A DNA stretch of 64,000 bases from Escherichia coli O157:H7 (GCF_013167455.1 NZ_CP038328.1), one strand, 5' to 3'. Positions 38,451 to 60,478 are shown, numbered from the stretch's first letter. Numbers and translations: made by a program. The notes: a model not told the origin generated them from the sequence alone.

Positions 38451-39071
38451 TTAGAGGATTTCCAGCAGTTCGACTTCAAACACCAGGGTGCTGAACGGAG
38501 GGATGGATGCGCCTGCGCCGCGCTCGCCATATGCCAGTTCCTGCGGGATAGTCAGTTCCCATTTAGAACCTACCGGCATCAGAGTCAGTGCTTCAATCCA
38601 GCCAGGGATCACGCCATTAACCGGAAATTCAGCGGGTTCACCACGAGCAACGGAGCTGTCAAACACGGTGCCGTCGATCAGTTTACCGGTGTAATGAACA
38701 CGAACGCGGTCGGTACGTGCCGGAATTGCGCCTTCACCCTGGTTGATCACGCGGAATTGCAGGCCAGATTCGGTGCTATTCACACCTTCTTTTTTGGCGT
38801 TTTCTTCCAGGTATTTCACACCTTCAGCAGCCATCGCCTGGAAACGCTGACGACGAACGGCATCGGCGCGCTCGTGGATTTCACGCAGCGCGCGATGCAC
38901 CACATCAACCGGAACAGCCGGATGTTTGCCTTCCAGCGCATCGGCAATACCTGCAACCAGTGCTTCTGGCAGCAGCCCTTCCAGGCCAGATTCACTCAGT
39001 TGTTGCCCTACCTGCAAACCAATGCCGTAGCTTGCTTGCGCTTCGATGGTGTCAAAAGTTGGGGTGGTCAT
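38451..39071 (-). CDS. fklB: FKBP-type peptidyl-prolyl cis-trans isomerase, 206 aa
   Basis: ORF-track 38451..39230 trimmed to the ATG giving [20 protein letters not shown]; FKBP domain at C-terminus. Confidence 0.93.
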
Positions 39072-39288
39072 CGTATTTCCTTTCTTAGGGTATAAAGTAG
39101 CGGGCAGCATATCAGCCACACTTCTTTGGGTAAAACTTTGTCGCGGGAATGATGACAAATCCCAGGGAAAAAGAAACAATAGCAATATCCCGTATGAATA
39201 TAATAAAGGCGGGTTTACCACGGACATCATAGCGTTAGCTTATTCATAGGCTATGATTGAGGAACAAGACGCGGAGCAGGAGGAAACC

Positions 39289-39927
39289 ATGCCCGGGCGC
39301 TTTGAACTAAAACCAACCCTGGAGAAAGTCTGGCACGCACCGGACAATTTTCGCTTCATGGACCCGCTGCCGCCGATGCATCGTCGGGGGATCATTATTG
39401 CCGCCATTGTATTGGTGGTCGGATTTCTGCTTCCATCTGATGATACGCCCAACGCGCCGGTGGTGACGCGTGAAGCGCAGTTAGATATTCAGTCGCAATC
39501 ACAACCGCCGACAGAAGAACAGCTGCGGGCGCAATTAGTCACCCCACAAAATTATCCTGATCAGGTGGCTCCGGTCGCTCCAGAACCTATACAGGAAGGC
39601 CAGCCAGAAGAACAGCCGAAAACTACCCAAACGCAACCATTCCAGCCAGATAGCGGAATTGATAATCAATGGCGCTCTTACCGTGTCGAACCCGGTAAAA
39701 CGATGGCGCAGCTGTTCCGCGACCACGGACTGCCCGCTACCGATGTCTATGCAATGGCGCAGGTAGAAGGCGCGGGTAAGCCGCTGAGTAATTTGCAAAA
39801 CGGGCAGATGGTGAAAATCCGCCAGAACGCCAGCGGCGTGGTGACGGGCTTAACCATTGATACGGGGAATAATCAACAGGTCCTGTTCACCCGCCAGCCG
39901 GATGGCAGTTTTATTCGTGCGCGGTAG
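39289..39927 (+). CDS. ytfB: OapA-domain cell-division protein YtfB, 212 aa
   Basis: ORF-track 39253..39927; start set to the ATG giving [16 protein letters not shown] preceded by AGGAGG RBS; TM segment, Pro/Gln-rich linker, C-terminal OapA-like domain. Confidence 0.88.
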
Positions 39928-40061
39928 ATGAAGGGTCAACCAAAAGCCAGCTAAGGATTGTCTCTTTGATGACCTTACGTCTGGCTTCCAGTGCCTGGGG
40001 TGAAACCATACTGATGTGTTGACATCCTCCAAGCCCTGAAGGACGTGGATCCCTGCTACGT

Positions 40062-41270
40062 TCAGGCTGTCGCCTGAATCATTTCGGTGGGTTCCTGCTT
40101 CAACGGGCGGCCTGACTGCACCATCTCCCCACAGGCAAGAACGGCGTGCCCCGCCGCTAAAATGTTACGAGCGCCATTTACATCAGCGTTCGCTGTATAT
40201 CCACATGCCTGGCATCTGAATTTACTTTGTGACAGGCGATTTTCTTTCGCTGTATGACCACAGCACGCGCAACGCTGGCTTGTGTACGCTGGCGGAACAG
40301 CAAGCACCTGACCGCCACGCCAGAGCTGCTTGTACTCAAGCTGGCGGCGCATTTCATACCAGCCCTGATCCAGTATCGAACGGTTTAAACCTGATTTTGC
40401 CCGGACATTGCGCCCCGGCTGGCTGACCGTACCCGCTGCTGACTTTGACATGTTGCTGACCTTCAAATCCTCAATGACTATCATTGCGTGGTTTTTGCTG
40501 ACGGTCGTTGTGACTTTGTGAAGGTAGTCCCTGCAGATATTTGCGATACAGGAATGCAGTCGCTGTATTTTGCGTTTCTGCTTCTGCCAGTTGTTGCTGA
40601 ATTTGACCTTGCGGCTTAACTGTCGCTGAAGTCTCGCCAGCGTCTTCTGGTTTTTCTGAAAACTGTTTACAGGTCCAAAGACTGTGCCATCTGACAGCGT
40701 GGCGAGTTTAGCCACGCCAGCATCCAGTCCGACCATTAATGCTGAAGGGTGAACCGGAGTTGATACTTCATTTTCAGTCTGAATACTGATGTACCACTTA
40801 CCGCAGGACTGGCTGGCAGTGACATTTTTCACAACACCCGTGACCTGACGGCTATTCCGGTAGCGCATCCAGCCAAGTTTCGGCAGAAAAATACGGCTGT
40901 TTTCCTGATCGAGCTTAACGCCCTGCGGGTAGCGGAATGCATCATTCTGTCCCCGCTTTTTGAATCGGGGAAAAGCAGCCCGCTTCCGGAAGAAGTTTTT
41001 GTAAGCCCGCTCAAGGTCTTTCAGTGACTGTTGCAATGGCTGTGACGGGGCATCTTTAAGCCATTGCGTTTCAGTGGCATTTTTCCACTCAACCAGCCAG
41101 GAAGCCATTTTCCCGTAAGGGATGTATTTATTACCGGCCTCATGATTCTCATTCTGAAGCGCCAGAGCACGATTGAAAACGAAACGACATGCGCCTGCGA
41201 AGCGCCTCATTTCACGCTCCTGTTGACCACCGGGTCTTAACTGGAATTTAAATGCCTGTAGTCGTTTCAC
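40062..41270 (-). CDS. tnpB: TnpB (IS605 OrfB family; putative RNA-guided endonuclease), 402 aa
   Basis: Full ORF; RuvC-I ([15 protein letters not shown]), RuvC-II ([11 protein letters not shown]), zinc finger CACCGH...CQACGY and RuvC-III ([11 protein letters not shown]) all present. Confidence 0.92.
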
Positions 41271-41277
41271 AGGCCAA

Positions 41278-41709
41278 ATGATACTTTGGTCTGTGAAAAA
41301 AGAAACCGATATCCGGCGTGGAAGGCATTGTGTTTTCCTGATGCATGTTCACCTGGTCTTTGTCACCAGATACCGACGCCAGATTTTTGACCATGACGCG
41401 ACAGAAAAACTACGCACTTACTTTTCAAAGGTATGTGCTGATTTTGAAGCTGAACTGGTTGAAATGGATGGCGAACCAGATCACGTCCATTTGTTAATTA
41501 ACTATCCTCCCAAACTGGCGATATCCAGTCTGGTAAACAGCCTCAAAGGCGTATCGGGTAGGTTACTGCGACGAGATCGACCAGATATTGCAGTCAGGTA
41601 TTACTACAAAGGCGTTTTGTGGAGTCCTGGCTATTTTGCCAGTAGCTGCGGAGGTGCGCCAATATCCGCCATCCGTCAATACATTGAACAACAGCAAACA
41701 CCTGGTTAG
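41278..41709 (+). CDS. tnpA: IS200/IS605-family Y1 (HUH) transposase TnpA, ~143 aa
   Basis: HUH motif (DHVHLL) and catalytic Tyr region (SPGYFASS); divergent from tnpB with start codons ~8 nt apart; true start may be a downstream Met. Confidence 0.9.
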
Positions 41710-41765
41710 GTGGAAAACCGCGCCGTATATCCCCGCCCTGAAGGACGGGGTTTTACGGCGCACCG

Positions 41766-41985
41766 GATAAACCAGGCCAAGCGTATGCTGGTTGATCAAA
41801 TAATATCCCCCAAGCGCAGCAATATTAATATTCACCTGCAATGGGTCGATATCTGGCTTAAAAATATTGTATTTCTTCCCTTCATCCAATAAGGATTCCA
41901 TTAACTGCAAGTGCGCATGGTTGATTTCTAAGAGACGCTGTGATTTTGCATAATGCACACCTTTACTTTGATTTTCACTATGCAC
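41766..41985 (-). pseudogene. ytfA: N-terminal portion of ytfA-like ORF, interrupted by the IS insertion
   Basis: Reverse-strand frame [36 protein letters not shown]... runs from a GTG into IS sequence; a matching C-terminal frame (...[32 protein letters not shown]) lies on the other side at ~39911-40010. Confidence 0.45.
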
Positions 41986-42331
41986 AATTTTTAAAAACCA
42001 GGGGTTAGCAATATAATAATCCCATGTAAAATCAATAATTTTCTCAATGGCTTTTTGTGGCTGGTTAACCTGCTGATTAACGAATACACCGATACCGACA
42101 GCGTAGAATAATTACATACCGCACAACAAGAATGTACGGTGTAAGGCGTGGAAGTCATTTTCTCCCCGGGTGCATCGTTATATCCATAATGAGCGATTTT
42201 TGATATTAATATCTTTCACCATCCGCTATTTTCACCACTTCAGAAAACAAACTTATTTTTATTAATATCGATTTTTTTCTGTGAACATTCAGCTGCGATA
42301 TTTATAAAAACATTAAACAGGTCACATTACA

Positions 42332-43126
42332 ATGACATTACCAACCACTATTTATTCATTTCCTGCATATTTATCTCGTTTTTCGTCCACCGACAAACCA
42401 GTAAAATTAAAATTTCATCAATACGCACGCGCTACATTACTTTCAAATCGTGGAAGAGATCATAATTGCGATGGCAGACGTACTGTTGAGATCCACAAAC
42501 TAGATCTCTCAGACTGGCAAGCATTCAATAAGTTAGCAACGAAGTGTAATGCTTACGATGGAGTAACAATGAATGGTGATAATTCTTTTGGATGGAACCA
42601 TGAAGCTACATTAGATAATATTCACGCCCAGAAATACAATAAAGCTTACGCGGGTGCGAGGTTAACCGCAGAACTGAAATATTTATTGCAAGATGTCGAA
42701 TCCTTCGAACCCAACAGTAAATACACAATACACGAAGTGGTTTTGGGACCTGGTTATGGTACTCCAGACTATACCGGCCAAACGATAGGATACGTTGTAA
42801 CCCTTCCTGCCCAAATGCCTAATTGCTGGTCATCTGAACTACCAACAATCGATCTTTATATCGACCAACTTCGCACTGTTACAGGCGTTTCTAATGCCCT
42901 CGGATTCATCATTGCTGCATTGCTAAACGCGTATTCTGATTTACCCCATGATTTGAAAATTGGTCTGCGTTCCTTATCAAGTTCAGCCGCAATCTACTCG
43001 GGTTTGGGTTTCGAGCGAGTGCCGCAGGAGCGAGACATCAGTTGCGCTCGTATGTATCTAACGCCAGCAAACCATCCTGACTTATGGACACAAGAGAATG
43101 GTGAATGGATCTACTTGCGAAACTAA
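42332..43126 (+). CDS. yjfZ: uncharacterized protein YjfZ, 264 aa; AT-rich orphan
   Basis: Full ORF with AT-rich sequence and long AT-rich upstream region; no recognisable domain by eye. Confidence 0.85.
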   Translation: MTLPTTIYSFPAYLSRFSSTDKPVKLKFHQYARATLLSNRGRDHNCDGRRTVEIHKLDLSDWQAFNKLATKCNAYDGVTMNGDNSFGWNHEATLDNIHAQKYNKAYAGARLTAELKYLLQDVESFEPNSKYTIHEVVLGPGYGTPDYTGQTIGYVVTLPAQMPNCWSSELPTIDLYIDQLRTVTGVSNALGFIIAALLNAYSDLPHDLKIGLRSLSSSAAIYSGLGFERVPQERDISCARMYLTPANHPDLWTQENGEWIYLRN

Positions 43127-59746: not shown

Positions 59747-60478
59747 CTAGCTGCGCTGACGAACCGCTTCAAATAAGCAAATTCCGGTTGCAACCGAAAC
59801 GTTCAGGGAAGAAACACTTCCTGCCATTGGGATGCTGATCAACTCATCGCAATGTTCACGGGTCAGGCGACGCATACCTTCACCTTCCGCGCCCATCACC
59901 AGCGCCAGGCGTCCGGTCATTTTGCTTTGATAGAGCGTATGATCCGCCTCACCTGCCGTACCGACGATCCAGATATTCTCTTCCTGCAACATACGCATGG
60001 TGCGCGCAAGGTTAGTCACCCGAATCAGTGGAACGCTTTCTGCCGCGCCGCAGGCTACTTTTTTCGCCGTGGCGTTGAGCTGTGCGGAGCGATCTTTCGG
60101 CACAATCACCGCGTGAACGCCAGCAGCGTCCGCGCTACGCAGGCACGCGCCGAGGTTGTGCGGATCGGTTACACCGTCGAGGATCAGCAGGAACGGTTGA
60201 TCGAGCGAAGCGATCAGATCCGGCAGATCGTTTTCCTGGTACTGACGTCCTGGCTTCACGCGGGCGATAATGCCCTGATGCACGGCACCGTCGCTTTTCT
60301 CGTCGAGATATTGGCGGTTTGCCAACTGGATAACCACGCCCTGGGACTCAAGGGCGTGGATCAGCGGTAACAGACGTTTATCTTCACGGCCTTTTAAAAT
60401 AAAGACTTCCTGAAAACGTTCAGGGGCGCGCTCCAGCAGGGCCTGCACTGCATGGATGCCGTAAATCATTTCGCTCAT
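59747..60478 (-). CDS. rlmB: 23S rRNA (guanosine2251-2'-O)-methyltransferase, 243 aa
   Basis: Full ORF; SpoU/TrmH-class methyltransferase sequence. Confidence 0.95.

Follow-up and report, generated by a model that had tools for sequence, protein, structure and literature searches.

Our analysis indicates that a 13-bp motif present twice in a 64,000-nucleotide (nt) stretch of the Escherichia coli O157:H7 genome (GCF_013167455.1, NZ_CP038328.1; hereafter the window, with coordinates counted from its first letter) belongs to the two ends of an insertion sequence (IS) that RefSeq names IS609, a member of the IS200/IS605 family. The two copies are very probably the cores of the element's subterminal imperfect palindromes, IP_L at the left end (LE) and IP_R at the right end (RE), and we predict that these are bound by the transposase TnpA, with guide-positioned cleavage of the top strand. 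The motif, GCCCTGAAGGACG, was found on the plus strand at 40033-40045 and 41735-41747, in direct orientation at both places. A first-pass annotation, made by a model from the sequence alone, had reported it there, and the search found it nowhere else in the window, even with one mismatch allowed. Chance would give 0.05 matches against the two observed, and 0 of 100 shuffled sequences held two or more. On the minus strand, which is the top strand of the element, the motif reads CGTCCTTCAGGGC and lies at the centre of each end hairpin. Comparison of the element ends in direct orientation showed 18 of 21 bases in common, a score reached by 0 of 500 shuffles. The 13-mer begins 14 nt inside RE and 19 nt inside LE, closer to the ends than the 20-30 bp that the annotation had estimated. 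The element and its two genes are as follows.

40019-41766, minus strand: IS609 element, 1748 bp, with junctions from the empty site L001 and three other loci (L002-L004)
41278-41709, plus strand: tnpA, encoding a 143-amino-acid Y1 (HUH) transposase, transcribed toward LE (Pfam Y1_Tnp, E 1.8e-41)
40062-41270, minus strand: tnpB (insQ), encoding a 402-amino-acid protein of the RNA-guided endonuclease family, divergent from tnpA

LE is the high-coordinate end and RE the low-coordinate end, and the strand predicted to be cleaved is the window minus strand. The element was placed at 40019-41766 because an empty site, in E. coli genome L001, and three other E. coli insertion sites fix the junctions. 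In the empty site CTGATGTG runs directly into ATAAACCAGG (that is, CTGATGTG meets ATAAACC with nothing between), and in the window the same CTGATGTG is followed by the element, TTGACATCC......GCGCACCGG, and then by ATAAACCAGG. Copies at yedK, yeaQ/DUF1869 and ydcO have identical end bases and unrelated flanks, with ATAA after each. The tetranucleotide (TTAT on the minus strand) is single both in the empty site and at the occupied site; there is thus no target duplication, and ATAA is a required flank. The empty site lacks the motif, and the same ends occur elsewhere within other flanks, which separates it from the chromosomal sequence. It is also kept in place, unchanged or altered at one base, in the other E. 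coli copies, as it is in the 24 LE and 22 RE sequences of related elements from other genera; thus neither of the two outcomes that the annotation had named as refuting its reading was observed. Terminal inverted repeats, which the annotation had said elements of this family lack, were indeed not detected: end-anchored comparisons gave 2 of 10 and 6 of 25 matches, and the inverted local score of 8 was within the shuffle range (mean 6.5, with 98 of 500 as high).

Membership in the IS200/IS605 family, likewise proposed beforehand, is borne out by both proteins. The Y1_Tnp match to TnpA (E 1.8e-41) spans 121 of 121 profile positions, and the HVH motif and catalytic-helix tyrosine (...IRQYIEQQ) align with those of solved TnpA proteins, including 2ec2. 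TnpA is homologous to IS608 TnpA (2a6m/2vju, E 7e-19), for which structures in complex with the hairpins are available, and matches 2xm3 (E 2e-17), which is deposited as 'transposase' and which we take to be ISDra2 TnpA. The tnpB product carries OrfB_IS605 (1.2e-32), Cas12f1-like_TNB (9.2e-25) and HTH_OrfB_IS605 (3.9e-14) matches in Pfam, among them the TnpB zinc-ribbon domain, and it matches the solved 'RNA-guided DNA endonuclease TnpB' chains 8h1j and 8exa (E 1e-52), presumably ISDra2 TnpB. In RefSeq, the Prokaryotic Genome Annotation Pipeline (PGAP) labels an identical tnpA 'IS200/IS605-like element IS609 family transposase' and its neighbour 'InsQ/TnpB'. Both genes are intact in the window copy. 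The 3' end of tnpB abuts RE, with the stop codon 43 nt from the RE end. Copies at 97-100% identity were found in 4836 of 5426 complete E. coli genomes.

Each end contains the parts expected of a recognition site in this family. On the top strand LE reads TTAT, the cleavage site, CCGGTGCGCCGT and AAAA, then the hairpin CCCCGTCC TTCA GGGCGGGG, followed by AT, ATACGGCGC and GGTTTTCC. RE reads ...CAG GGAT, then the hairpin CCACGTCC TTCA GGGCtTGG, the tail AGGATGTCAA, the cut and the flank CACATCAG....

41767-41770, minus strand: TTAT, target and left cleavage tetranucleotide (C_L), or target-adjacent motif (TAM), beside LE in all four E. coli loci
41755-41766, minus strand: linker CCGGTGCGCCGT, 12 nt from cleavage site to guide, part of which is the 5' arm of the LE outer stem
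41751-41754, minus strand: AAAA, predicted left guide (G_L), directly 5' of the hairpin foot, in the position of the IS608 AAAG
41731-41750, minus strand: IP_L, CCCCGTCC-TTCA-GGGCGGGG, holding the 13-mer at 41735-41747, with an 8-bp stem, a 4-nt loop and T·G at the sixth pair
41729-41730, minus strand: AT directly 3' of IP_L, the A invariant and the T in at least 90% of the LE alignment, equal to the IS608 A+42/T+43 bases
41720-41761, both strands: LE outer stem (41720-41727 with 41754-41761), enclosing IP_L and G_L, from the centroid fold
40049-40052, minus strand: GGAT, predicted right guide (G_R), 5' of the hairpin foot; GAAT in many relatives, as in IS608
40029-40048, minus strand: IP_R, CCACGTCC-TTCA-GGGCTTGG, holding the 13-mer at 40033-40045, from folds and covariation, with a C·T mismatch in the window copy
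40019-40028, minus strand: tail AGGATGTCAA, 10 nt from the IP_R foot to the right cleavage site, starting with A,G and ending with the right cleavage tetranucleotide (C_R) TCAA at 40019-40022

Folding of both end regions gave a hairpin at each. As DNA, IP_L folds at -7.5 kcal/mol on the minus strand (z -3.0) and at -6.9 kcal/mol on the plus strand. The annotation had recognized this hairpin, CCCCG...CGGGG at 41731-41750 on the plus strand, but had missed the one around the 40033 copy, which is formed by CCAAG...CGTGG on the plus strand (40029-40048) and is weak in the window copy. This weakness is due to a copy-specific substitution: position 40032 is A on the plus strand in the window and C in the other copies, which leaves a C·T mismatch in IP_R. 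The consensus IP_R folds as DNA at -7.7 kcal/mol (z -3.7), and without the substitution the stretch shared by the two ends would be 14 nt long. The LE and RE hairpins of one element differ by a compensated pair, CCCCG/CGGGG against CCACG/CGTGG.

These positions reproduce a published scheme. In IS608, cleavage occurs 3' of TTAC, 19 nt 5' of the IP_L foot (PMC3201880; PMC5934647), and after TCAA, 10 nt 3' of the IP_R foot (PMC3201880), and the guides lie directly 5' of the feet, AAAG on the left and GAAT on the right (PMC3201880; PMC5934647). Directly 3' of IP_R, A-10/G-9 form base triples with the guide (PMC3201880; PMC5934647), and directly 3' of IP_L, A+42/T+43 are needed for a robust TnpA-LE complex (PMC3201880). 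The hairpins, guides and cleavage sites of IS609 take up corresponding places, which supports the earlier suggestion that these are TnpA recognition structures, as predicted from the sequence. TnpA most likely uses the hairpins to find and cut the element.

Conservation among relatives was used to examine this prediction. A TnpA scan of species-representative genomes gave 43 loci at 49-94% protein identity, in hosts such as Klebsiella, Serratia, Pantoea, Erwinia, Buttiauxella, Morganella, Yersinia, Edwardsiella and Photorhabdus. Top-strand alignments were made of 24 LE and 22 RE sequences, the related elements being from other Enterobacterales, with LE pair counts taken from 23 distinct rows. 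IP_R is paired in 96% of cells, and compensatory changes occur at two of its pairs. Columns 59/74 show four pair types (UG 7, CG 6, AU 3, UA 2), columns 62/71 three (UG 12, CG 6, UA 3), and columns 60/73 one CG-to-UA double change. When the partners were slid by 1-3 columns, pairing fell to 30-52%. IP_L is paired in 92.9% of cells, and its T·G is kept in 20 of 23 relatives and replaced by G-C once. The tail AGGATGTCAA is invariant in every relative in which the stretch was readable (22 in the RE alignment). An unaltered 13-mer was found in 17 of 25 LEs but in only 3 of 24 REs, where most relatives have a TTTA loop; it is the structure that is conserved, rather than the 13-mer itself.

The guide sequences gave further evidence. 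TTAT or TTAC stands 5' of LE in 24 of 24 aligned elements, and the fourth base of the target changes together with the fourth base of G_L (TTAT with AAAA in 14, TTAC with AAAG in 6, exceptions 3). As the flanking bases belong to the host and are selected by the element, their covariation with G_L gives direct comparative support to a target choice directed by the guide. The same flank bears on the active strand. The annotation had taken the window minus strand as the top strand, and it is only there that TTAT/TTAC precedes LE. G·T pairs possible on one strand only also fall mostly there (top versus bottom, 23 versus 9 in IP_L and 21 versus 1 in IP_R). The plus strand was considered as the active strand and rejected: there is no conserved tetranucleotide on the 40019 side, and the G·T pairs become A·C mismatches.

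In Buttiauxella warmboldiae, at least four copies (L013, L018, L019 and L020) lie at different TTAC sites and have ATAT for the AAAG guide. In this variant the LE hairpin and the outer stem make one long near-perfect palindrome. L016, from the same genome, retains the AAAG guide. The contigs of this genome break inside the IS, which implies that it holds many IS copies. We tried to place the ATAT variants on the IS608 pairing rule, also with a shifted hairpin foot, and found no fit. Some close relatives of TnpA come from unexpected records: L017, labelled Streptomyces mutabilis, is a 2-kb contig whose TnpA (84% identity) is close to the enterobacterial transposase, and L040, L041 and L046 are from metagenome-assembled genomes (MAGs) of Collinsella (2 kb), Paceibacterota (3.4 kb) and Chlamydia trachomatis (60-kb contig). 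These four records are probably the result of contamination or misbinning.

Outside IP_L, the LE outer stem, 8 bp long, shows covariation at columns 11/50 (CG 13, UA 7, UG 2). At columns 15/46 no pair is formed in 20 of 23 relatives, most of which have a G·A mismatch, and the window copy alone has G-C (41725). Downstream of the outer stem, on the top strand, lies a conserved non-coding GGTTTTCC (41712-41719). We can speculate that the outer stem has an insulator, terminator or regulatory role.

Based on these observations and the work on IS608, we propose the following course of transposition. When the window minus strand becomes single-stranded, each palindrome would fold up as a hairpin, with one T·G among the eight pairs of its stem and TTCA as its loop, and a TnpA (Y1/HUH) dimer would bind both hairpins. 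The guides AAAA at LE and GGAT at RE would pair with TTAT outside LE and with TCAA at the RE end, respectively, which would position the catalytic tyrosine and the cuts. The element would then be excised as a single-stranded circle and reinserted 3' of another TTAT. Recognition of the two ends by one and the same protein surface would account for their shared sequence. The donor joint, TTAT followed by CACATCAG..., is exactly the empty site. According to the published model of TnpB action, this joint would be a target of the element's own TnpB, guided by an RNA from RE and the flank.

Several observations weigh against this prediction. Because IP_L is almost invariant, its structure rests on thermodynamics and likeness to IP_R, not on covariation. 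The rule relating target and guide is broken in three relatives, namely L005 and the Buttiauxella LEs with ATAT for the guide, and the distance from the LE cut to the hairpin foot is 16 nt in IS609 versus 19 nt in IS608. At RE, the IP_R of the window folds as DNA at -3.1 kcal/mol (z -0.6), no better than shuffles, and given its mismatch the window copy may be a poorer transposase substrate. The IP_R foot could also be extended by one T-A pair, which would shift G_R by one base, and the GGAT of E. coli implies a T·G rather than a T-A contact with the first C_R base. Finally, no data on binding, cleavage or transposition by IS609 TnpA were found in the literature searched. Searches on IS609 end structure or InsQ function returned surveys and unrelated papers, none specific to the IS609 ends.

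Other explanations of the repeated motif were considered alongside TnpA recognition. The ends could serve transcription or RNA roles only, with RE as a stem of the TnpB guide RNA, LE as a tnpA terminator or read-in insulator, and common descent as the source of their likeness. This is unlikely, even though IP_R is the last stem of a consensus RNA fold and the G·U pairs favour the tnpB-sense strand; in addition, TTTT follows IP_L on the plus strand, and the conserved GGTTTTCC follows the outer stem on the minus strand. However, a promoter/terminator scan flagged neither hairpin, and the T-run on the plus strand is the complement of G_L, which in relatives reads CTTT or ATAT and covaries with the target. 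RNA roles would also leave unexplained why the distance to TCAA is always 10 nt, why TTAT or TTAC flanks LE, and why the LE hairpin, which lies outside any guide RNA, keeps the same T·G imperfection. An RNA function of RE is likely as an added role but not as the sole explanation, and because the scan flagged neither hairpin, the terminator role of LE is left as speculation.

It is very improbable that the hairpins are relics, with an immobile window copy and a motif without function in this genome. In favour of such decay, the C·T mismatch at 40032 lowers the IP_R fold from -7.7 to -3.1 kcal/mol, and the insertion is common to 797 of 5426 genomes (exact junction in 309; listed examples O157:H7). 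Against it, tnpA and tnpB are intact, the consensus sequence is retained in IP_L, in both guides and in the tail that ends with C_R, and one stem mismatch need not abolish binding in hairpins that are naturally imperfect; moreover, the argument concerns the activity of one copy and not the nature of the motif. A chance match, or a host repeat in the flanking chromosome such as a palindrome like the repetitive extragenic palindromes (REP), deserves hardly any credence. The motif is short and has a GC-rich palindromic look, but two copies were observed for 0.05 expected, the motif is absent from L001, and it accompanies the element at three other E. coli loci and recurs in homologous elements of about ten other genera, while the similarity of the ends in direct orientation exceeds that in all 500 shuffles. 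Taken together, these comparisons favour recognition of the two palindromes by TnpA.

We also asked what RNA role RE might add to its predicted use by TnpA. The published TnpB model holds that the guide RNA comes from the tnpB 3' end and RE, with its guide encoded in the flank (bioRxiv 10.1101/2023.03.14.532601). Two features of the window can be placed on this model.

40062-40077, minus strand: hairpin TCAGGC-GACA-GCCTGA, a predicted omega RNA scaffold stem, containing the tnpB stop codon
40003-40018, minus strand: flank CACATCAGTATGGTTT, 16 nt, the predicted guide portion of the omega RNA, based on the published TnpB model

The hairpin at 40062-40077 is paired in 100% of cells in 22 relatives, with two pairs changed on both sides, and its G·U pairs favour the top (tnpB-sense) strand by 13 to 0. 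For the 182 nt that precede the RE end, the consensus RNA fold was a multi-stem structure with 13 pairs showing double changes, and IP_R is its last stem. It is plausible, on this fold, that the RE hairpin is also the last stem of the TnpB guide RNA. TTAT followed by CACATCAGTATGGTTT equals the empty site of L001. A long-range helix proposed by the consensus fold, between ACAUUU inside tnpB and GGAUGU beside the RE end, was rejected, as it showed one-sided changes only. An Rfam scan of 39000-43000 (E up to 1) matched no family, and thus no curated RNA model covers these ends. A more speculative proposal, which we think possible but doubtful, is that the 20 nt of IP_R are dual-coded, being read by TnpA as a single-stranded DNA hairpin and also forming the final stem of the guide RNA; that the LE outer stem hides or exposes the guide, thereby regulating transposition or blocking read-in; and that the Buttiauxella ATAT copies imply target choice without a canonical guide.

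At its location in the window, IS609 splits a gene for a TetR/AcrR-family regulator into pieces at 39911-40033 and 41746-42060 on the minus strand, both marked as pseudogenes in RefSeq. In L001, which lacks the insertion, the gene is whole and its 3' end overlaps that of ytfB. Of the 5426 complete E. coli genomes, 797 carry the insertion at this site and 309 have the identical junction sequence, the listed examples being O157:H7. Elsewhere in the window, CCACGCCCTTGAGTCCCAGG at 60340-60359 on the minus strand matched a degenerate hairpin pattern with two mismatches; it cannot form the stem and was dismissed as chance.

For annotation, these results provide exact ends (40019-41766), the TTAT target motif, the recognition elements and the disrupted TetR-family gene. 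For the TnpB nuclease encoded by the element, TTAT is the predicted TAM and the flank at 40003-40018 the predicted guide. The IS608 rules (hairpin, guide tetranucleotide and 10-nt right-end spacing) are comparatively confirmed in the enterobacterial IS609 lineage, and this includes a natural retargeting, TTAT/AAAA versus TTAC/AAAG. Current understanding is unchanged by these findings, which describe ordinary IS200/IS605 biology.

Of the known systems, IS608 of Helicobacter pylori, on which the structure and biochemistry of single-strand transposition in this family have been modelled, is similar to IS609 in having a homologous Y1 TnpA, a tnpB gene and subterminal imperfect palindromes on the top strand at both ends. 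IS609 also shares with it the C_R TCAA exactly 10 nt 3' of IP_R, the A,G after IP_R and the A,T after IP_L. The tetranucleotides differ in part: C_L is TTAT or TTAC in the IS609 lineage (TTAT in E. coli) and TTAC in IS608, G_L is AAAA or AAAG versus AAAG, and G_R is GGAT in E. coli (GAAT in many relatives) versus GAAT. In contrast to the co-oriented genes of IS608, tnpA and tnpB of IS609 are divergent, an IS605-type layout, and a further stem encloses IP_L. The hairpin imperfection of IS609 is a T·G pair, whereas that of IS608 is an extrahelical base. ISDra2 of Deinococcus radiodurans has counterparts of TnpA and TnpB, but its end sequences are unrelated to those of IS609, for which our data are sequence data. 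The ISDra2 target is the pentanucleotide TTGAT.

ISGst elements have flanking motifs and DNA guides with covarying mutations (Meers et al., bioRxiv 10.1101/2023.03.14.532601). Among them, ISGst2 of Geobacillus stearothermophilus is similar to IS609 in its palindromic subterminal ends on the top strand, and its TAM, TTTAT, resembles (T)TTAT. In ISGst2 the TAM and an element-encoded motif (TEM) covary with the DNA guides. It differs from IS609 in host and sequence, and its activities were measured experimentally. IS200 of Salmonella belongs to the same family as IS609 but lacks tnpB. In IS200 the left-end hairpin doubles as a transcription terminator, to which the LE outer stem of IS609, with the TTTT after it, may be comparable. 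In kind, the ends of IS609 correspond to the standard recognition apparatus of a catalogued IS200/IS605 insertion sequence, with no departure from the IS608 paradigm.

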